Positions 8,857 to 63,264 of a stretch of 64,000 nucleotides of DNA are shown here, one piece after another. Both the position numbers and the translations under genes were made by a program. The notes beneath the pieces were generated by a model. The model did no database searches, was not told where the DNA came from, and saw nothing but the letters and a program-made list of their open reading frames with translations. The stretch covers positions 78,848 to 142,847 of the forward strand of contig CAKOOJ010000003.1 of the NCBI GenBank assembly GCA_934098385.1, in the 5' to 3' direction. Position 1 is the stretch's first letter. Each line of letters begins with the position of its first letter. Source of the stretch: an uncultured Bacilli bacterium. Its GTDB lineage: Bacteria; Bacillota_I; Bacilli_A; RF39; UBA660.

Positions 8857-9882
8857 TTAGTTATTTGGATGGATTATTATTTTTATTGCATCATCTTTTC
8901 CATTAGTAAGTCTTACAAATGATTCTTGTACTTTATCTAATCCAACTCTATCGTCTATGTATTTTTCTACATTTATTTCTTTTTTACTGATCAAATCAAT
9001 AACATTTTCAAACTCATTTACTGTATATGCGATAGCTCCTTGCATAGTGATTTCTCCCATTACTGTCATTACTGTAGGTATTGTTACTGGTGTCATACTA
9101 ACACCTACTAAAACAATAGTTCCTCCTGGTTTTGTAGCCATAATTGCCTCACTTACGGCAGGAGTATTTCCACAGCATTCTAAGACAACATCAAATCCAC
9201 CAATAGTTTTTTCTACTAATTTTGGTACTGTATTTGCATCGATTGCATTGTAATATTCATCAACGCATCCATATTTTAATGATTTTTTTCCACGCATTTC
9301 ATTTGTTTCTAAAAGTGCAATATATTTTGCTCCTGCTTTTTTTGCAAATTCTGCACACATTAATCCTATTATTCCGCCACCAATAATTAGAACGTTGTCA
9401 TCTTTTTTGATTTTTCCTAAATTAACTGCATGTAAACTTACAGATGATGGCTCAACCATTGCAGCTTCATCATTTGATACATTGTCTGGAAGTTTTTTTA
9501 CCATGTCGCTACGACAACTTGAAAATTCAGCATATCCTCCTGGATTAGTTAATGAAAGTCCTACTGCTTTACTCCAAGTTAATTTACAATATTGAGGATT
9601 TCCACTTTTACATGCACGACACACGCCACATGGAGATATTGGAAGTCCTGTTATTCTGTCACCAACTTTTAAATCACTTCTTGAACCTGGATCGATTACT
9701 GTTCCACAAAATTCATGACCCATTACTAATCCGTTTGGTTCTCCCATATCCCAGTAATGTATATCACTTCCACATATACCACATGATTCTACTTTAAACG
9801 TCACGCTACCATTAGAACTTATAGGTTTATCTATTTCTCCACTTATAAATTCTCTTTTTCCATTTAATTTAACACATTTCAT
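8857..9882 (-). CDS. Zinc-dependent alcohol/polyol dehydrogenase (MDR superfamily)
   Basis: Likely start is MKCVKLNGK (ATG 9882). Catalytic zinc ligands are CGICGSD and GHEFCG. The structural zinc cluster is CGVCRACKSGNPQYC. The Rossmann motif is IIGGGIIG. Confidence 0.85.
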   Translation of the reverse strand: MKCVKLNGKREFISGEIDKPISSNGSVTFKVESCGICGSDIHYWDMGEPNGLVMGHEFCGTVIDPGSRSDLKVGDRITGLPISPCGVCRACKSGNPQYCKLTWSKAVGLSLTNPGGYAEFSSCRSDMVKKLPDNVSNDEAAMVEPSSVSLHAVNLGKIKKDDNVLIIGGGIIGLMCAEFAKKAGAKYIALLETNEMRGKKSLKYGCVDEYYNAIDANTVPKLVEKTIGGFDVVLECCGNTPAVSEAIMATKPGGTIVLVGVSMTPVTIPTVMTVMGEITMQGAIAYTVNEFENVIDLISKKEINVEKYIDDRVGLDKVQESFVRLTNGKDDAIKIIIHPNN

Positions 9883-9960
9883 AAATATGCCTCCTATCAT
9901 ATAAATTATAATACAAAGACATATTTTAAACAATAATATTGCTCAAATTAAACATTTATT

Positions 9961-10326
9961 TTACACAGATGGTGCACCAATAAAATCAGGATTATGACTT
10001 TGAAAATATATTAAACATGAAACTCCCGCTATTAAAAGTGCACTACCTAATAATTTAATTCTAAAAAGTCTTTTAGCCTCAATACTAGCTTTCTTATATG
10101 CATCATAATTTCTATATATAAAATATAAATATATTAATAAAACCACAATTAAAACAAACAAATATATATCATTTGCTGTTTTTTCATCTTTTTTATTTCC
10201 TGTTTTAACATAATTTTTTTGATATTTATTTGCTACTATATTAAAAGATATTGCAACTATAAAAATTATAAATATTATATCTTCAAATTTTAATCTAGCT
10301 AAGTCATTATTTAATATATCTTCCAT
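9961..10326 (-). CDS. Small integral membrane protein (3 predicted TM helices)
   Basis: The hydrophobic segments are IIFIIFIVAISFNIV, IYLFVLIVVLLIYLYFIY and LLGSALLIAGVSCLIYF. Confidence 0.45.
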   Translation of the reverse strand: MEDILNNDLARLKFEDIIFIIFIVAISFNIVANKYQKNYVKTGNKKDEKTANDIYLFVLIVVLLIYLYFIYRNYDAYKKASIEAKRLFRIKLLGSALLIAGVSCLIYFQSHNPDFIGAPSV

Positions 10327-10341
10327 AATAAATTATATGAA

Positions 10342-10390
10342 AAAAAGTAAATTTTTAATTTCCTTTTCGATTGATACTAGTATGTTTGTT
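10342..10390. repeat. Direct repeat copy A (degenerate copy of the 3' end plus terminator of the lipoprotein gene at 11865)
   Basis: Hand alignment with 11847..11895 at a constant offset of 1505 nt gives 43 of 49 identical positions and no indels. It retains the hairpin AAAAGgAAA..TTTaCTTTT on the minus strand, just after the Bro-N gene stop. Confidence 0.8.
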
Positions 10391-10392
10391 TT

Positions 10393-11247
10393 TTATTTAC
10401 CTTCTATTTTTTCATTTTGATCAATATATTTATATGTTAAATTATTATTATTTGAAACTGCTGATTTATTTGTTTCTTTCTCATATAAAACTCTTGCACC
10501 TTTAGCAACATGTCCTCCACGTTTTGCGACTTTCATATTTTCTTTAAATCCTTTTGGATGTTCAGAAGATGCTATATCACGAGTTGCAACTTCACCTAAG
10601 TTTGTTAAAAGAACTTCTATATCAGTCATATTATCTCTTAAGGATTCTTTTCTAAGTCCTTTATAAGTTTTATATTCACTTACTTTCATACCAGACCAAC
10701 TTTTATATATTTCATTAGTTAAAATTGCATATTCTTTATTTTCGTTTATTCCCCCATCTTTCCATATATCAGTTAGTTTATTTCTATCTAGTATTCCTTT
10801 TAATCTAGCTTCAATCCATTTATCAGAATATCCTCTTTTGCGATAATAATTAATTGCTCTTTTAATAGCTATTTCAGGATCAAATACTTCATCAATCCTC
10901 TCGCTACCTAAATGTGCTAACCACATCTTAAATGGTTCTGCTTTAGGACTAGGTATTGACTCAATAAGTCTTAAAATGTCATTTGTTTTCATAGCATCTC
11001 TTAATCTCATTTTTCCATCAGGTGCTAACATTTTCAACTGACTACAATTTGTAGTCACTTCACTACCTTCTTTTTTTAGTCTTGTTTTAAGTACAGACCA
11101 GTATTTTCTAGCATCTTTTGGATTTGCTAAAGCATTTACAACATCAACGACACTAAAGTAATAATCTTCCTTTTCATTATCCCAAATACTTCTAATTTCT
11201 TTTCCTTCAAACAAATCCACAATTGTTTCAAGTTTTTCTTGATTCAT
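10393..11247 (-). CDS. Bro-N domain protein, DinD-like (DNA-damage-inducible protein D / phage antirepressor family)
   Basis: The N-terminus FEGKEIRSIWDNEKEDYYFSVVDVVNAL is Bro-N-like. The segment PKAEPFKMWLAHLGSERIDE..AIKRAINYYRKRGYSDKWIEARL resembles DinD-family proteins. Confidence 0.7.
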   Translation of the reverse strand: MNQEKLETIVDLFEGKEIRSIWDNEKEDYYFSVVDVVNALANPKDARKYWSVLKTRLKKEGSEVTTNCSQLKMLAPDGKMRLRDAMKTNDILRLIESIPSPKAEPFKMWLAHLGSERIDEVFDPEIAIKRAINYYRKRGYSDKWIEARLKGILDRNKLTDIWKDGGINENKEYAILTNEIYKSWSGMKVSEYKTYKGLRKESLRDNMTDIEVLLTNLGEVATRDIASSEHPKGFKENMKVAKRGGHVAKGARVLYEKETNKSAVSNNNNLTYKYIDQNEKIEGK

Positions 11248-56951: not shown

Positions 56952-57674
56952 TTAATCTTTTTCACTTTCAATTTTTATTTGTTTTAAATATAACACTGTT
57001 GATTCATCAATATACATTTTTAATAAAATTGTATTATTTTCTTTTTCTGCTTCTATTTTTATATTAGTATTTGTATTAAGTGTTATATTTATAATATTTT
57101 TATTTATTGTGTATTTGCCTGTTATTTCATCTTCATTTGCATACATCGTTAAATAGTTTTTAAATGTATTATCATCATTAAATATGATATACGATTTTTC
57201 ATCATGGTTATTGCCCAAATAGTTTTCTACCGATTCTGATACACCATTTACTTTTAAATCATATGGTTCATAATATCCAACTAAATCTTCTTTAGTTAAA
57301 TAAGTGTTATTTTCACAAGTTATTTTTTTAATTGTACCATCATTGTTTAAATATTTACAACTATAATTTCCTGTACTATCTAATTCACAATCATATGCTT
57401 TTTCACACATTAATTTATTTGCATTATTCTTTGCTGTATCTAAAGTACTTGAAACTGTTCCAACGCTTATTAAAAGTAATAATACTAAGAACTGGAATAT
57501 AAATAACAACGCTGATATTATTATACCTGCTATACTTAACCCTTTTCCTTTATTATTTAATTCTTTTGATTTATTTAATCCTATTATTGAAAGTATTAAA
57601 CCTACTACTGGTATTATAAACGACAAGATAAAACCTACTATTGATATTGTATTGTTTTCATTATTATTTTTCAT
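56952..57674 (-). CDS. DUF4190-type two-TM anchor fused to a 170-aa variable domain
   Basis: The N-terminus is MKNNNENNTISIVGFILSFIIPVVGLILSIIGLNKSKELNNKGKGLSIAGIIIS. The C-terminal domain is unrelated to that of its paralogue. Confidence 0.55.
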   Translation of the reverse strand: MKNNNENNTISIVGFILSFIIPVVGLILSIIGLNKSKELNNKGKGLSIAGIIISALLFIFQFLVLLLLISVGTVSSTLDTAKNNANKLMCEKAYDCELDSTGNYSCKYLNNDGTIKKITCENNTYLTKEDLVGYYEPYDLKVNGVSESVENYLGNNHDEKSYIIFNDDNTFKNYLTMYANEDEITGKYTINKNIINITLNTNTNIKIEAEKENNTILLKMYIDESTVLYLKQIKIESEKD

Positions 57675-57679
57675 TTCTT
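57521..57679. repeat. Direct repeat (5' end of the DUF4190 paralogue), copy 2
   Basis: See copy 1. Confidence 0.8.
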
Positions 57680-57700
57680 TACTCCTTTTTCATTTTTATA

Positions 57701-58135
57701 TTATTGGTCTTTGATTTCTAAATTATCTATTTGTTTAGCTAAGCCATTGAACCAACTTATTGTAACTATATAATCGTTATTTAGTATTAAATCATTATTA
57801 CCTATCGTATAACAATAAACTGGTTTCAAAGATATTTTTTTTGGATTAGTTTTTGGTATAGTAAAAACCATTTGACAAATTTGTTTTCCCTTATAATTTT
57901 CAATATTTTTTTGGACTAGTGTCATACGCATCTTTCCAGATTTTGCAAATAACCTTACATCGAAATAAATAATAGCAACGCATAAAATTATTCCACCTAT
58001 AAATTCTGGATTTCTATCTATCAATAGTTTTATTGAATAAATAGGTGTTGAAATACTAAATAAAATCATCATAAATAAAGCATATACGTTCATAATAAAT
58101 GAGTTCCATATTCCTTTTTTTGTATATACTTTCAT
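57701..58135 (-). CDS. Hypothetical membrane protein (2 TM helices, 144 aa)
   Basis: The ORF starts 4 nt after the upstream gene. No motif was recognised. Confidence 0.45.
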   Translation of the reverse strand: MKVYTKKGIWNSFIMNVYALFMMILFSISTPIYSIKLLIDRNPEFIGGIILCVAIIYFDVRLFAKSGKMRMTLVQKNIENYKGKQICQMVFTIPKTNPKKISLKPVYCYTIGNNDLILNNDYIVTISWFNGLAKQIDNLEIKDQ

Positions 58136-58139
58136 TCCC

Positions 58140-58448
58140 TTACTCCTTACTAATATTGTTTTTTAATTCTTTAAAGTCTTCATTCTCGTAGCCTTTAAAA
58201 ATTATTTTTGTTATATTTTTTTCTGTATAAAAATTTGTTGATTCTAAATAAAAATTATATTTTTTCAATTCTTTATTTTTGTATTCTATATTTATTAAAT
58301 TAAATGGCCAAGACGTAAAATGATAAATGCTTATATTTTCATATAAATCATAAGTCAAATTATAATTTTGATTATAATAGCCATCAATCATAACTATATA
58401 TTTGTTGTCCAATTCTACTATTGAACCAATTGGTAAAAGTTCTTTCAT
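58140..58448 (-). CDS. DUF4176-like small protein (102 aa)
   Basis: MKELLPIGSIVELDNKYIVMIDGY matches my recollection of the DUF4176 N-terminal signature (LLP-x-GS-[VI]-V ... [LV]MI-x-G). Confidence 0.5.
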   Translation of the reverse strand: MKELLPIGSIVELDNKYIVMIDGYYNQNYNLTYDLYENISIYHFTSWPFNLINIEYKNKELKKYNFYLESTNFYTEKNITKIIFKGYENEDFKELKNNISKE

Positions 58449-58449
58449 A

Positions 58450-58836
58450 TCAATTTTCCTCTTTAATTAAATCTTTATCATTCATAAATTTTTGTCTTAT
58501 TTCATTATCATAACCTAAATATATAACTTTACTTATTTCTTCTGTATTAATATTTATATAATTGTAGTTATCATCGGTTGTTCCTAATGGATATTCCAAG
58601 CACCAATAATCGATTGTTTTTAAAACACTTTTCTTAATATATATTGCTCCTCTATAATTATTAATCATATATAATTTGTCATCATTATTTCTTTTTATTA
58701 TTGTACCTATTGGTAATAATTTATTGAATGAAGTATTACTTTTTATTAATTCACTTTTTTTATATTTATAATAGTCAAAAAGAATTTTAAATATAGAAAT
58801 TAATATAAAAAATATAATTATAATTATTGGTATCAT
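58450..58836 (-). CDS. DUF4176-like protein with N-terminal TM helix (128 aa)
   Basis: After a TM helix it reads LLPIGTIIKRNNDDKLYMINNY, the same signature as the neighbouring gene. Confidence 0.45.
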   Translation of the reverse strand: MIPIIIIIFFILISIFKILFDYYKYKKSELIKSNTSFNKLLPIGTIIKRNNDDKLYMINNYRGAIYIKKSVLKTIDYWCLEYPLGTTDDNYNYININTEEISKVIYLGYDNEIRQKFMNDKDLIKEEN

Positions 58837-59363
58837 GTATTTAATGTATCCTTACATATCTTTATCATTTTATTTAATCTATGATTATCAACTAAAGACC
58901 AAATTATAAAATTTATACAGAAGAAAATAATTAATAAAGAGTCTAAATCAAAATCAATTATTGTAAATATTAATGTAAATAATAATATTGGAAATAATAT
59001 TATTATTAAAATGTTATTTTTTCTTTTTTTATTTTTAGAATATTTATATGATATATTAAATAGGTATTTTTTATGGTTAATATCTAAAGATTGAAAGTTA
59101 TTATTTAATTCATTTAAAAACTCCTTATAATGTATGTTAGTTTCAAATTCATTTTTTATAATATTTAAAATAACTTTATTTTCATCATTGTTATATACTA
59201 CATAAAAATATATTGTGCATAAATCTTGATATGTTTGTACGGTACTTATTAATTGTCTTAAATTACTAATACATTCATCATATTTTTTCTTTTTTATATT
59301 TGTATTTATTTTATCTAAACTAAGCTTATTTGTTTCTAAAAAATTTAAATAATTATATTCCAT
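58833..59363 (-). CDS. Hypothetical protein with C-terminal TM helices (176 aa)
   Basis: It has an ATGA overlap with the downstream gene and an 11-nt overlap with the upstream gene. Confidence 0.45.
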   Translation of the reverse strand: MEYNYLNFLETNKLSLDKINTNIKKKKYDECISNLRQLISTVQTYQDLCTIYFYVVYNNDENKVILNIIKNEFETNIHYKEFLNELNNNFQSLDINHKKYLFNISYKYSKNKKRKNNILIIILFPILLFTLIFTIIDFDLDSLLIIFFCINFIIWSLVDNHRLNKMIKICKDTLNT

Positions 59364-59838
59364 CTTTCTTTACTCCTAACTTATTGATACAATCTTCTAA
59401 ATATTTTAAGTCTTCTAATACTACTCCATTAAGTATACATGGTCCATTTTTATTAATACTTCGTTCTTTACCATATAAATTAAGCCAAACATAAAAATTT
59501 ATTGTATTATCTGTTATTTCATATTTTAAATATCTAGAACTTGATGTTATATCAACGTAATAAATTGTTTTATATGCATAGTATGCAGTTTCTTTTCTAT
59601 ATCTATTTTCTTTATATAATAATTTTTTTAACATTTCTTCTATATTTTTTGATATTTCATCTTTAGATATATTCTTGGGGATAGGTAATTGTATGCAAGT
59701 TCTAGAGATTTTATTTTTTCCTATAAAACAAATATAAAATAGTGCTATTATTATTGAAAGTACTATAATAAAGATTAAAATATTTTGTACTATTTCAATT
59801 AAGAAAAATTTATAAAAAAATATACTTACTATTGTCAT
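59353..59838 (-). CDS. Hypothetical membrane protein (161 aa as tracked; frame is open upstream to 59916 without a start)
   Basis: It has an N-terminal TM helix. See the finding on the A7 tract: one extra A would fuse it with the 31-codon ORF at 59865..59960. Confidence 0.45.
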   Translation of the reverse strand: MTIVSIFFYKFFLIEIVQNILIFIIVLSIIIALFYICFIGKNKISRTCIQLPIPKNISKDEISKNIEEMLKKLLYKENRYRKETAYYAYKTIYYVDITSSSRYLKYEITDNTINFYVWLNLYGKERSINKNGPCILNGVVLEDLKYLEDCINKLGVKKDGI

Positions 59839-59864: not shown

Positions 59865-59960
59865 TTATATATTGAGAATATTTTTTTCTTCTCCAATTAA
59901 TATTTCTGTTTCTAATTCATTTAATGTTTTATATTCTATGTTTACGTTATTATTTTTCAT
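59865..59960 (-). CDS. 31-codon ORF immediately after the rSAM gene (either a 5' fragment of the next gene or a stand-alone peptide)
   Basis: Hand translation gives MKNNNVNIEYKTLNELETEILIGEEKNILNI*. An AGGAG lies 7 nt upstream of the ATG (59960..59958), which is 12 nt after the rSAM stop codon. Confidence 0.3.
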   Translation of the reverse strand: MKNNNVNIEYKTLNELETEILIGEEKNILNI

Positions 59961-59972
59961 GTTATTACTCCT

Positions 59973-60962
59973 TTATAAATTACATCCTATATCTTTATAA
60001 TTTAAGTCATTATATATTGCGTATGTTAAACATTTAAGTCCGCCATGACATGTTTCTGAATGTTCACATTTTTTGCAATCGTTGGGTATTTTATTTTTTC
60101 TTAATTCTTTTAATAATTTATTATTTGTATATAAATCATACATATTGTTTTTAAATAAATTTCCTATAAGTATAGGCATTCTACGACATGGAACTAAATC
60201 TCCATTTTCCATGACAGTTAGTAATGTATCACCTGCTGTACATCCATATGCAAAATCATTTGTCATTTGAAATTGTAAAGCTCTGCACATAGATATACGT
60301 GTATTATTTTTTTTAAGTGTCATTTTTTTTCTTTCATTATTCATGATTTTTAAATATTCTAATGTTTGTTCTTTATTTAATATTAATGATTTATCTATAT
60401 TATCACCTAATGGTATATATCTGTCAGACCAAACATTATCAACCTTATGTTTTTTAGCACATTTTACCACTTCTGGAAATTCCTTATAATTTATACCTGT
60501 TGCTGTAAAAGATATAGATGTAAATATATCATGTTTTTTTAAGTTGTCTATTCCTTTTTCTATTAATTTATATGAACCTTTTCCTCTTATATAATCGTTT
60601 GTTTTCTCGCTACCTTCTAAACTTACTTGTACATAGATGGGACTATAAGTTTTTATTTTTTTTGCTATAGTATCATCAATTAGAGTTCCATTTGTTAATA
60701 TCGAAAAAGTTATTAAATTTTTGTCTTGTCTTATTAAATCTAATATTTTAAAAAAATGTGGATTACATAATGGTTCTCCACCTGTTATGTTAATGTGGCC
60801 TTTCATATTTAATTTAATTAATAAATCTTTATATTGATTATAAATTATTTTTAATTTTTCATAACTCAATTCTACTGGTATGTGTTTTTCTTGATAACAA
60901 TGTTTACATTTCAAGTTACATTTTTCACTTAAGTGCCATTGTAAAACAAATTTTTTTACCAT
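59973..60962 (-). CDS. Radical SAM enzyme with C-terminal SPASM-like Cys-rich domain (329 aa)
   Basis: The start is placed at MVKKFVLQWHLSEKCNLKCKHCY (ATG 60962..60960), which carries the CxxxCxxC cluster. GGEPL is present. The C-terminal region is CRALQ..YGCTAGDTLLTVMENGDLVPCRRMP..CKKCEHSETCHGGLKC. The 20 extra codons in the tracked ORF are an out-of-frame reading of the DUF2207 tail. Confidence 0.85.
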   Translation of the reverse strand: MVKKFVLQWHLSEKCNLKCKHCYQEKHIPVELSYEKLKIIYNQYKDLLIKLNMKGHINITGGEPLCNPHFFKILDLIRQDKNLITFSILTNGTLIDDTIAKKIKTYSPIYVQVSLEGSEKTNDYIRGKGSYKLIEKGIDNLKKHDIFTSISFTATGINYKEFPEVVKCAKKHKVDNVWSDRYIPLGDNIDKSLILNKEQTLEYLKIMNNERKKMTLKKNNTRISMCRALQFQMTNDFAYGCTAGDTLLTVMENGDLVPCRRMPILIGNLFKNNMYDLYTNNKLLKELRKNKIPNDCKKCEHSETCHGGLKCLTYAIYNDLNYKDIGCNL

Positions 60963-62725
60963 GAGCCACCTCCACCACATGATGAACAACCGCCACCGCA
61001 AGATGAACAGCCTCCACCACATGATGAGCCTGAATTATTACCGAAATGTGAAAAATTAGATGTTTTTTTATGAGTTGTTTCGTCTTCATAAAATGTGATA
61101 TTATCATAAATATCATAAAATGAAGAATCGCTATCAAATTCAAAATTACCCATATCAATTTTTGGCATTTTTATGTTCTCAAATTTATCTATCCATTTTT
61201 TTGAAACATTAAGAACATATGTGTAAGGTAAAATATCATAAAAATAGCTTGGGTTTTCATTTACTAATTTTTCTAACCTATCTTTTTCAGCGGTTACTAA
61301 AAAATCTCTAAATCCTAAAACTTGTGCTGTGATTTTTTCTCCATACTTTGTTTTTCTTTTCATAAGCATAGCAAAGATAATATTTATAAAGATACATAAG
61401 AATGATAAATTATATAAAATATTCCATGAGGGATCCATATCTTCTATTGTGTAATAAGATAAAGTATTTAAAATAATTACGGCAATTATAATAATTATTA
61501 TGTTTAGTTTCTTACGATTGCTTACTTGGTCATTAATCACATCACTAAATTTATTTTCTAAATTAATTTCAGTATATTCGAATGCTTCATATATTATTTT
61601 ATTTTCACTTAATATAGTTTCATCGCTTTCTCTAAATAATTTATCATATACAGTTCTTTCTAAAATTGATAATGAAGAATATTTTATGTCACTTGTTGCT
61701 ACCTTAGAAATTTTTATTTGTTTCTTTTTATCTTTAATCTCATCTATTTTTATTATTCCTTTACTAGCAAGTTGTATTATTAAAGATATAGTTAATTTTT
61801 TACTTGTTTGTTTTGCATATATATATCCTATTTCTGCAGAATTCATATTTTCAGGAGGATAAAATTCTACAGTTTTTGGTACTTTTGGGTAATTTTTTCC
61901 ATATTTAAACCAAATTAGAAATGAAAAGAAAGTTAATCCAAATATTATTAATGATGTAAAAACAGAGCCATAACCATAGTTCCAATTACCTTGAGTAAAA
62001 TACCCTTCAGGTAACTCTATATCAACAGTTAAAGATTTTTCTAAATGCTTATTTGTATTTTGAAAATATTTTTCTTTATTTAACGTAGCGTAAATTTTGT
62101 TATCTACTATGTTATAATTTACATATTCGGTTATATTTTCTTGTCTCATTTTGTCTGCAAAGAAATTTATATTTGGATTATTTAGAGATTTGGGCATTAT
62201 TATCTCTAAAGATGCATTTTTTATTTCTGTATTCCAATAATCTCCATAAGCGTGAAATATAAATTCATCATATCCTTTGTAAGGATCTGTACCCATATCA
62301 TATGTATATTTTATAACATATGTTTTCTCGCCTAAGTCAACATACTCATAAGCATTTCCTAATCTTATTCTTACTTTCTTTTTCACTCTATCAACTGTAT
62401 ATGGATCACTGCTACTTCTTAAATTTCGCACTGAAGATTTTCTTTTTATAGTATTGTCATTTTTATCAGTATATTCTAACCATTCAGGAATAAATCTATA
62501 AATGCCATGATGATTTATATCATTCCAATTTACGGTGATATTTTCAGTAACGTCTATAACATTATTAGGTAAAACATTTAATATTACGTCATATTTGGAA
62601 ATACTATATCCACTTTCTTCAGTTGTTTCTGTTGTATCTATTTCATTTCCCATAATACCTATTACAACTATTAGACATAATGTAAACCACAAAAATATTT
62701 TTCTTTTTTGTTCTTTTACACTCAT
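60956..62725 (-). CDS. DUF2207-family membrane protein with Cys-studded Gly-rich C-terminal tail
   Basis: It has a signal/TM helix, then YSISKYDVILNVLPNNVIDVTENITVNW..HHGIYRFIP (the DUF2207 hallmark) and several TM helices. The tail is NNSGSSCGGGCSSCGGGCSSCGGGGSW. Confidence 0.8.
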   Translation of the reverse strand: MSVKEQKRKIFLWFTLCLIVVIGIMGNEIDTTETTEESGYSISKYDVILNVLPNNVIDVTENITVNWNDINHHGIYRFIPEWLEYTDKNDNTIKRKSSVRNLRSSSDPYTVDRVKKKVRIRLGNAYEYVDLGEKTYVIKYTYDMGTDPYKGYDEFIFHAYGDYWNTEIKNASLEIIMPKSLNNPNINFFADKMRQENITEYVNYNIVDNKIYATLNKEKYFQNTNKHLEKSLTVDIELPEGYFTQGNWNYGYGSVFTSLIIFGLTFFSFLIWFKYGKNYPKVPKTVEFYPPENMNSAEIGYIYAKQTSKKLTISLIIQLASKGIIKIDEIKDKKKQIKISKVATSDIKYSSLSILERTVYDKLFRESDETILSENKIIYEAFEYTEINLENKFSDVINDQVSNRKKLNIIIIIIAVIILNTLSYYTIEDMDPSWNILYNLSFLCIFINIIFAMLMKRKTKYGEKITAQVLGFRDFLVTAEKDRLEKLVNENPSYFYDILPYTYVLNVSKKWIDKFENIKMPKIDMGNFEFDSDSSFYDIYDNITFYEDETTHKKTSNFSHFGNNSGSSCGGGCSSCGGGCSSCGGGGSW

Positions 62726-63264
62726 AAATTTACCTCTATATTTTCTCTTTCATTTTCTTCGACGTAAAACATTTTTTGTGGTTTTAGTCCCATTAATTTT
62801 GCAATTATATTGCTTGGGAACATTTGAACTTTATTATTAAACTCTCTTACTACTGCATTATAGTACTTTCTTGACTGTGCAATTTCATCTTCCAATTTTA
62901 CTAATGTATTACTCAAATTAATAAATTCCTCATTTGCTTTTAATTCTGGATATTTTTCAGATATTGCGATAAATTGTGTAACATTTTTACTTAATTGTTC
63001 ATTTTTATTTATTTTTTCTTCATTACTTAAATTTGCGTAATTAATATTTCTTAATACAGTAATATTTTTAAAAGTATTTTGTTCATGCTTTGTATATCCT
63101 TTAACGATTTCAACATAGTTCGGAATTAAATCCCATCTTTTTTTCAAATATACATCCATTGTTGCAAAACTTTCTTTAAATCTATTATTTAGTTTTATAA
63201 ATTTATTAACAGTTATTATAAAATAACTAAATAAAAGTATTATTATTAAATATATTACATCCAT
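62722..63264 (-). CDS. lemA: LemA-family protein
   Basis: It has an N-terminal TM helix. KKRWDLIPNYVEIVKGYTKHEQNTF...AQSRKYYNAVVREFNNKVQMFPSNIIA is the LemA signature. Confidence 0.9.
   Translation of the reverse strand: MDVIYLIIILLFSYFIITVNKFIKLNNRFKESFATMDVYLKKRWDLIPNYVEIVKGYTKHEQNTFKNITVLRNINYANLSNEEKINKNEQLSKNVTQFIAISEKYPELKANEEFINLSNTLVKLEDEIAQSRKYYNAVVREFNNKVQMFPSNIIAKLMGLKPQKMFYVEENERENIEVNL

Follow-up and report, generated by a model that had tools for sequence, protein, structure and literature searches.

The ACGX system (TIGR04340/TIGR04341) pairs a radical SAM (rSAM) enzyme with a short repeat peptide of tandem small-residue-Cys-Gly-x units; to our knowledge, it is a bioinformatic family whose chemistry is uncharacterised. 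We know of only few rSAM/SPASM enzymes that act on proteins, such as QhpD and the anaerobic sulfatase-maturating enzyme (anSME). SbtM carries SPASM clusters, abstracts the β-hydrogen of Cys and oxidises Cys or selenocysteine in the Gly-rich GGUG (Gly-Cys) motif to a thio(seleno)oxazole (PMC9204691). Membrane proteins of TIGR04222 carry unstructured Ser/Gly/Cys-rich C-termini, are encoded beside MNIO (DUF692) genes and are putative MNIO substrates modified as bona fide proteins; in bufferins, MNIO enzymes make Cu-binding thiooxazoles (PMC12452194). Here, we compare these systems with a locus in a 64,000-nucleotide stretch from an uncultured Bacilli bacterium (contig CAKOOJ010000003.1, positions 78,848 to 142,847; the whole stretch is termed the window), in which a DUF2207 membrane protein with a Cys/Gly-rich C-terminal tail and a 329-aa rSAM/SPASM enzyme are encoded by overlapping genes. 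Judging from comparative sequence analysis, the enzyme is probably the dedicated maturase of the disordered cytoplasmic tail of DUF2207.

Both DUF2207 proteins and the LemA proteins they pair with occur widely among bacteria, yet no molecular function is known for them (PMC10457818; PMC12631010). The literature searched contains few mentions of DUF2207 and no pairing of DUF2207 with an rSAM enzyme, in agreement with the initial annotation of the window, which had known of no description of the three-gene module. In the same literature, ACGX together with radical SAM returned nothing, and LemA together with SPASM returned medical papers only.

The overlapping genes and the DUF2207 tail

LemA, DUF2207, and the rSAM enzyme are encoded by three overlapping genes, all on the minus strand. 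LemA (180 aa, 63264..62722) scores 159.6 bits against PF04011, above the threshold, contains an N-terminal transmembrane (TM) helix (residues 1-19), and overlaps the DUF2207 start by ATGA (62725..62722), as read directly from the sequence. DUF2207 (589 aa, 62725..60956) matches PF09972 (72.9 bits) and PF20990 (100.8 bits), both above threshold, and has a Gly-rich C-terminus that ends in Trp (…NNSGSSCGGGCSSCGGGCSSCGGGGSW-TAA). The C-terminal tail SSCGGGCSSCGGGCSSCGGGGSW (60959..61027), the proposed rSAM substrate, comprises three Cys pairs (one CGGGC, two CSSC) set within a Gly run and the final Trp.

The two genes meet in a compact coupling junction (60956..60973). The rSAM ATG (60962..60960) borrows its A from the third position of the Ser codon and its TG from the start of the Trp codon, which results in TC-ATG-G-TAA and a 7-nt overlap with the DUF2207 gene, whose TAA lies at 60958..60956. 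Five nucleotides before this ATG, the Gly codons GGAGGT (60973..60968) double as a Shine-Dalgarno-like site. The initial annotation had described the ATGA overlap, the Cys-Gly tail, the ATG inside the last tail codons, the Shine-Dalgarno role of the Gly codons, and a radical SAM enzyme with a SPASM-like Cys cluster, and all five are confirmed. A longer rSAM open reading frame (ORF) of 349 aa starting MWWRLF… was rejected as the start, as it is an alternative frame of the Gly/Cys codons and the tblastn matches of relatives begin at or near the overlapping NTG. Between 59300 and 64000, promoter-like sites are fewer than in shuffled sequences and no terminators were detected, a scan that is uninformative in DNA of 22% GC.

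DUF2207 is built from an N-terminal TM helix, a β-rich ectodomain, TM2, a cytoplasmic winged-helix-like region, TM3-TM4, a cytoplasmic helical C-terminal region, and the disordered tail. Hydropathy places the four TM segments at residues 10-28, 255-273, 409-427, and 436-454, and the distribution of Lys and Arg (positive-inside rule) predicts a cytoplasmic location of the N-terminus, the 274-408 loop, and residues 455-589. A Protter analysis of the S. mutans DUF2207 homologue yields the same topology (PMC10457818). In the AlphaFold2 (AF2) model of the window protein (predicted local distance difference test (pLDDT) 81.7), residues 547-582 have a pLDDT <50 and are predicted to be disordered. Predicted to be cytoplasmic and disordered, the tail should be accessible to the enzyme. 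The terminal GGSW (60959-60970, residues 585-588) is modelled as a short strand with a confidence clearly above that of the preceding 35 disordered residues, and the terminal Trp is invariant in a 41-sequence DUF2207 alignment, Cys-free relatives included. As modelled, the end of the tail may dock back onto the protein.

The tail represents the last ~25 residues of four-TM membrane proteins of 570-730 aa. The 120 closest DUF2207 homologues (43-100% identity) all have tails in which …GGGGSW is preceded by one, two, or three units of the CSSCGGG type; two single-residue variants occur among them, and some orthologous tails keep one CSSC pair only. The 78 tails derived from the genome loci described below end without exception in GGGC(S/G)(S/G)CGGGG(S/A)W, 75 of them exactly in GGGCSSCGGGGSW. 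Among these 78, the codons vary synonymously (TGT/TGC, TCT/TCA/TCC/TCG, and all four GGN). Thus, selection acts on the amino acids rather than on an RNA element or on the Shine-Dalgarno-like sequence alone. Searched against NCBIfam at E=10, the isolated tail has no match, the ACGX-repeat peptide model included, and it lacks the sulfatase motif C/S-x-P/A-x-R.

Linkage of the enzyme to Cys/Gly tails

A scan of one genome per species, with an 11-sequence rSAM alignment as query, identified 311 rSAM relatives, the best 80 of which (62-79% identity) were retained and their loci read as 16-kb stretches. They derive mostly from metagenome-assembled genomes (MAGs) of low-GC gut and rumen Bacillota (“uncultured Bacilli”, Ca. 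Coprosoma, Ca. Faecisoma) and include the isolate Pseudobutyrivibrio sp. YE44. The initial annotation had proposed tabulating the neighbours of the enzyme. An intact DUF2207 gene lies directly upstream of rSAM in 77 of the 78 loci having upstream DNA, a count that overstates the number of independent events since the 80 loci are phylogenetically clustered; in the remaining locus (L055), DUF2207 is fragmented. In most of the loci, the rSAM match starts 7 nt ahead of the DUF2207 stop. The start position inside the last DUF2207 codons is always legal (TTG in 43, ATG in 32, and GTG in 3 of the 78 tails), and the Ser codon at the overlap is never TCC, which would yield CTG. The same pairing occurs in two metagenomic contexts with wholly different flanking genes. 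This arrangement is far beyond chance.

Around the pair, no other conserved neighbour family was found in the 80 loci, nor was a conserved small ORF downstream of rSAM that could serve as an alternative precursor. LemA is encoded in only half of these loci (40 of 80), and therefore the conserved core consists of two genes, not three. Moreover, LemA is also encoded upstream of Cys-free DUF2207 genes without rSAM. LemA is a generic DUF2207 partner and not specific to the rSAM system; of the three-gene module envisaged initially, the DUF2207-rSAM pair stands, while LemA as its specific third component does not.

The linkage also holds when approached from the tail. Metagenome contigs were scanned with a DNA pattern encoding CxxCGGGGxW followed by T-R-R (all three stops), and 80 of 120 matching stretches were read. 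Sixty-three of them are chance matches in short or non-coding frames; the other 17 are genuine ORF ends on contigs of 25-29% GC. All 16 ORF ends long enough to test belong to DUF2207, and rSAM is the next gene in 14 of the 15 cases with enough downstream sequence.

DUF2207 proteins of other lineages (Subdoligranulum/Ruthenibacterium-like Clostridia, Sinorhizobium, Sulfitobacter) carry Cys-free GGFSGGGFGGGGGSW-type tails such as GGFSGGGFGGGGGGSW or GGGGGGGGGW, found in about two dozen intact tails and three more among the lineages sampled. In this generic tail, the residues spaced within the Gly run are Phe, not Cys. None of six such loci read has a neighbouring rSAM gene, and LemA lies upstream in five of them. 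As judged from the tails sampled, the Gly-rich, Trp-terminated tail is a general DUF2207 trait, while Cys residues mark the rSAM-linked clade. Both the earlier statement that Gly-rich tails are typical of LemA-DUF2207 pairs and the comparison it suggested, of tails with and without the enzyme, are borne out: only the Cys residues are special.

The strongest argument for an enzyme-substrate relationship is provided by distant relatives. For seven rSAM representatives (41-55% identity), the gene neighbourhood was looked up; four of them, at 41-45% identity, lie behind an ORF with a Cys/Gly tail. P0253 (locus L218, 45%) follows a 111-aa protein ending …SGSSCGSSCGSSCGSSCGSGCGGM (…SSCGSSCGSSCGSSCGSGCGGM), the stop of which overlaps the rSAM start. 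P0246 (L217, 43%) follows an ORF that the gene caller placed in the wrong frame; it ends …GCGGGGCGGCGGGGD and is joined to the enzyme by a TGATG overlap. Upstream of P0245 (L220, 43%), a bona fide DUF2207 (Pfam) ends …GCGGGGGGCGGGGGCGGGGAG and the called genes overlap, and P0244 (L222, 41%) is separated by a 105-nt gap from a 354-aa membrane protein ending …GGGCGGCGGGD. The L222 carrier scores 35 bits against TIGR04222 and 26 bits against DUF2207_C, both below cut-off, and the L220 and L222 carriers are almost unalignable with the window DUF2207. On this evidence, the partner of the enzyme that is conserved across deep divergence is a Cys/Gly(/Ser) C-terminal tail and not a particular carrier protein. 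Since the carrier changes while the tail stays, the pattern is what an enzyme-substrate pair would be expected to leave. The comparative tests thus support the functional enzyme-tail link that the initial annotation had suggested.

It is highly improbable, and already disfavoured, that the adjacency merely reflects operon compaction without meaning, with a housekeeping rSAM enzyme and tail Cys residues that arose as a lineage-specific compositional quirk. Most of the 80 close loci do come from one low-GC gut Bacillota MAG group, so that shared ancestry inflates the counts, and no DUF2207 linkage exists for P0241, which is next in identity (55%). However, the pair is found in many different neighbourhoods, with Pseudobutyrivibrio (38% GC) as well as MAGs of 21-30% GC as hosts, and four distant lineages, which serve as independent replicates, repeat the order of an enzyme behind a Cys/Gly tail. 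Further, codon choice varies at the invariant Cys residues and the overlapping start is always kept.

The 111-aa carrier in front of P0253, set in a phage-like neighbourhood, is nearer to a classical precursor of a peptide that is synthesised ribosomally and modified after translation (RiPP), and the short repeat peptide of the ACGX system offers a parallel. The tail could accordingly be a disguised RiPP precursor, with DUF2207 as an oversized leader or scaffold from which a modified C-terminal peptide is cleaved and released as a bioactive or metal-binding peptide. We regard this as quite unlikely, because no protease, exporter/transporter, or immunity gene is conserved beside the pair in the 80 loci, and because the Trp-terminated Gly tail is ancestral in DUF2207 proteins without a maturase, which argues that the tail works as part of the protein. 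Additionally, the AF2 confidence of the terminal GGSW exceeds that of the rest of the tail.

Enzyme class and candidate tail chemistry

The window enzyme (329 aa, 60962..59973) scores 86.5 bits against PF04055 (threshold 29.5) and 30.1 bits against PF13186 (threshold 21.5; residues 241-300). It begins directly with the rSAM core, in which the CxxxCxxC motif C15-N-L-K-C19-K-H-C22 (CNLKCKHC, residues 15-22; 60897..60920) forms the site of the SAM-cleaving [4Fe-4S] cluster; C15, C19, and C22 are invariant in the 47 relatives aligned. The SPASM region (59982..60242) contains seven conserved Cys in invariant alignment columns (C241, C259, C296, C299, C305, C311, and C327), with the conserved spacing G254-x4-C259, C296-x2-C299-x5-C305-x5-C311, and C327. 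Seven Cys residues would be enough for two auxiliary [4Fe-4S] clusters; as there are seven rather than eight, one coordination position of auxiliary cluster I may be open to a substrate thiol, similar to CteB. PMC10177961 reports substrates that contact auxiliary clusters directly. Neither a RiPP recognition element (RRE), sought with NCBIfam profiles and by structural comparison, nor a signal peptide or TM segment was found in the enzyme.

The window enzyme lies below the curated cut-off of every NCBIfam model. Its best match is TIGR04340, the rSAM of the ACGX system (161.3 bits, cut-off 400; profile positions 2-319 of 341), followed by TIGR04082 (SbtM) with 142.1 bits (cut-off 350), a match that covers profile positions 198-497 of 516 and leaves out the ~195-aa N-terminal part of SbtM. 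The anaerobic sulfatase maturase model TIGR03942 reaches 60.8 bits (cut-off 349), models for anSME and thioether-forming SPASM maturases range from 61 to 107 bits against cut-offs of 340-350, and the matches to AlbA and StsB begin past their N-terminal ~100-117 profile positions. Five distant rSAM relatives were scanned in the same way. Their best match is always the ACGX-system rSAM or SbtM, with both among the top six; SbtM ranks first for two of them and the ACGX-system rSAM for several, and the TIGR04340 scores amount to 135-152 bits. Going by these scores, the enzyme's clade has no curated model of its own, the closest curated families being the ACGX-system rSAM and SbtM. The window enzyme has thousands of close homologues at 74-99% identity. 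When sequences clustered at 50% identity are searched, the top full-length match is 55% identical and the next <=45%.

The AF2 model of the enzyme (pLDDT 93.9) matches SuiB, anSMEcpe, CteB, and SkfB best (template modelling (TM) scores about 0.8, with 0.77-0.82 for anSME and the thioether-forming maturases), all of which act on peptides or proteins, and anSME shows the highest target coverage. GDGT-MAS is a weak PDB match.

Several observations weigh against the tail as a substrate. As the enzyme reaches the cut-off of no named family, it cannot inherit a chemistry from any of them, and SPASM enzymes are not all peptide-acting: NirJ and AhbD models score about 93-107 bits for the window enzyme. 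The CxxC pairs could bind a metal or an Fe-S cluster without covalent modification. Among the seven distant relatives, three (P0241 at 55%, P0242, and P0243) have no Cys/Gly-tailed neighbour. In L106, a CSSC-tailed DUF2207 (tail end ~2466) is followed by an unrelated ORF (MFSFFKKKYNK…) instead of rSAM; this gene may represent another paralogue, comparable to the additional tailed copy found in L016. There, a second DUF2207 without its own enzyme and with the full CSSCGGGCSSCGGGCSSCGGGGSW tail is located directly downstream of rSAM (9009-11075), and one enzyme may serve both tailed paralogues. Finally, the tails of TIGR04222 proteins are predicted to be periplasmic (PMC12452194), in contrast to the predicted cytoplasmic location of the window tail, which is a topology prediction only.

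Some of these points converge on an explanation in which the tail remains unmodified and holds a metal or an Fe-S cluster by its CxxC pairs. As a site for docking, electron transfer, or cluster donation, it would tether the rSAM enzyme to the membrane, and the enzyme would act there on something else (a lipid, a cofactor, or another protein). CxxC pairs spaced by Gly runs resemble metal-binding knuckles, some SPASM enzymes, such as NirJ and AhbD, act on non-peptides, GDGT-MAS is a weak structural match, and the enzyme has no RRE. That DUF2207 is without known function (PMC10457818) fits as well. Yet we judge this explanation unlikely. The single CSSC pair of some tails offers too few cluster ligands on a monomer, and enzymes that modify Cys or peptides make up the closest curated families as well as every top structural match. 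Moreover, the carrier changes fully, down to a soluble-looking protein of 111 aa, while the Cys/Gly tail stays, which is substrate-like rather than what would be expected of a membrane scaffold, and no further gene is conserved from which a substrate pathway could be built.

We infer from the gene linkage, the conservation of the tail, its predicted topology, and the class of the enzyme that the tail is probably the substrate. According to this maturase model, a ribosome finishing the tail (…CSSCGGGGSW-stop) would re-initiate 7 nt back on the start codon of the enzyme. By such translational coupling, enzyme and membrane-anchored substrate would be made together at the membrane. The RRE-less enzyme would, like anSME, bind the Gly-flanked Cys motif directly, and the substrate thiol would probably ligate the first auxiliary cluster, which seemingly has three protein Cys ligands. 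The 5′-deoxyadenosyl radical would then take a hydrogen, and one or more Cys of the CSSC-GGG units would be oxidatively modified.

Each of the described systems resembles the locus in part. As in the ACGX system, the top-scoring curated family, the architecture is RRE-less, and the SSCG/SCGG units of the window tail and the (SSCG)4 of L218 fit the ACGX repeat pattern; however, the window enzyme is not a member of that family and the repeat sits on the end of a membrane protein instead of a short peptide. The invariant GGGC and CGGGG of the tail provide Gly-flanked Cys residues similar to the SbtM motif, whereas SbtM itself acts on a free selenopeptide, in Geobacter and Desulfobacteria, and the window tail belongs to a membrane protein and contains no selenocysteine. 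The window enzyme shares with anSME the fold and the lack of an RRE and would, like it, act on Cys within a full-length protein, but the tail does not have the sulfatase motif. CteB likewise has seven rather than eight SPASM Cys. The fold is shared with the thioether-forming SPASM maturases (CteB/SCIFF, PapB, SkfB) as well, but the Asp/Glu acceptor of ranthipeptides is missing, the proposed substrate being a Gly/Ser/Cys low-complexity tail. A classical sactipeptide or ranthipeptide cluster is not present, as the locus lacks an RRE, a short precursor, a protease, and an exporter and places the Cys motif on a 589-aa membrane protein.

The closest published parallel is TIGR04222-MNIO, in which a multi-pass membrane protein with a Ser/Gly/Cys tail is likewise encoded next to a Cys-modifying enzyme. 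Here, the enzyme is an O2-independent radical SAM/SPASM protein and the hosts are mostly low-GC gut and rumen Bacillota, while MNIO enzymes are O2-dependent and TIGR04222 occurs mostly in Actinomycetota. The window DUF2207 is not a TIGR04222 member (cut-off 43 bits) and gives no match even at E=10; sub-threshold matches are limited to the L222 carrier (35 bits) and P0421 (31 bits). By analogy, the system looks like an anaerobic radical-SAM version of the TIGR04222-MNIO idea on a DUF2207 scaffold, and given that proposal, a Cys-rich membrane-protein tail as maturase substrate is not a wholly unprecedented concept.

For the chemistry on the tail, our guesses are a Cys-derived thiooxazole at Gly-Cys, SbtM-like and serving as a metal-binding group, or an intramolecular thioether of the sactionine or ranthionine type that staples the tail; oxidation of the formylglycine type is less likely. 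The thiooxazole is favoured because of the kinship with SbtM and the invariant GGGC. Only tentatively, and with considerable doubt, can this be extended to the proposal that the rSAM/SPASM enzyme of low-GC Bacillota from the gut and rumen, both anaerobic habitats, installs thiooxazole-type heterocycles or cross-links on the cytoplasmic DUF2207 tail as an O2-independent counterpart of the MNIO-TIGR04222 and bufferin chemistry of aerobes. If so, the Gly-rich, Trp-terminated tail would become a metal- or redox-active module and a first mechanistic handle on the LemA/DUF2207 family. Metal handling, redox sensing, and tail stapling are candidate biological roles of a modified tail.

A coupled rSAM enzyme acting on a Cys-bearing tail would in any case show that the unexplained Gly-rich tail of DUF2207 is a functional element, and it would extend the radical SAM/SPASM ‘peptide’ maturases to a membrane-protein substrate. 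With a 25-residue peptide and a 329-aa enzyme, the system would be tractable in vitro. Taken with the MNIO-TIGR04222 proposal, this suggests that the same kind of Ser/Gly/Cys tail is modified by two unrelated enzyme families, one working aerobically and the other anaerobically.

Genes around the pair

In L217 (1-198), the Gly/Cys/Ser-rich ORF upstream of rSAM is called in the wrong frame (VVVEVAVAEAV…). Gene callers can thus mis-frame G/C/S tails, which are therefore probably under-annotated in public protein sets; the rSAM clade itself is hidden from annotation below every NCBIfam cut-off. In L218 (127-7504), the 45% rSAM relative and its (SSCG)4-tailed 111-aa partner have numerous small ORFs as neighbours, along with genes for a DNA methylase and an SNF2 helicase. 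This neighbourhood looks phage- or mobile-element-like, and a scan of viral contigs with P0253 found no relatives.

Copper genes adjoin two of the pairs or enzymes. The YE44 pair has a CopA-type Cu-ATPase and a Cys-rich 112-aa protein as neighbours (L076, 3162-6079), and P0241 is encoded near a CsoR-type repressor and an HMA P-type ATPase (L089, 8652-10999). A link to copper was rejected, as such a neighbour occurs in only 1 of the 80 close loci, and the adjacency is probably coincidence, although it would deserve notice if the product binds copper. An extra 266-aa radical SAM/SPASM gene, not detected in the 80 genome loci, follows ~1 kb downstream of the pair in one lineage (L005-L008, 8000-8800). 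In L001 (2925-3737) and about ten other loci without LemA, a family-less protein of about 265-295 aa is often encoded directly upstream of DUF2207.

In the window, a 31-aa ORF, MKNNNVNIEYKTLNELETEILIGEEKNILNI (59960..59865, minus strand), starts 12 nt past the rSAM stop with AGGAG before its start and has no family match. It was rejected as an alternative precursor because it is devoid of Cys and lacks conservation across the 80 loci. Further downstream (56952-59838, minus strand), rSAM is followed by six small co-directional genes; the 161-aa product (59353-59838), the only one of the six scanned, has no Pfam or NCBIfam match. Their products comprise 102-240 aa, and several look membrane-anchored by sequence.

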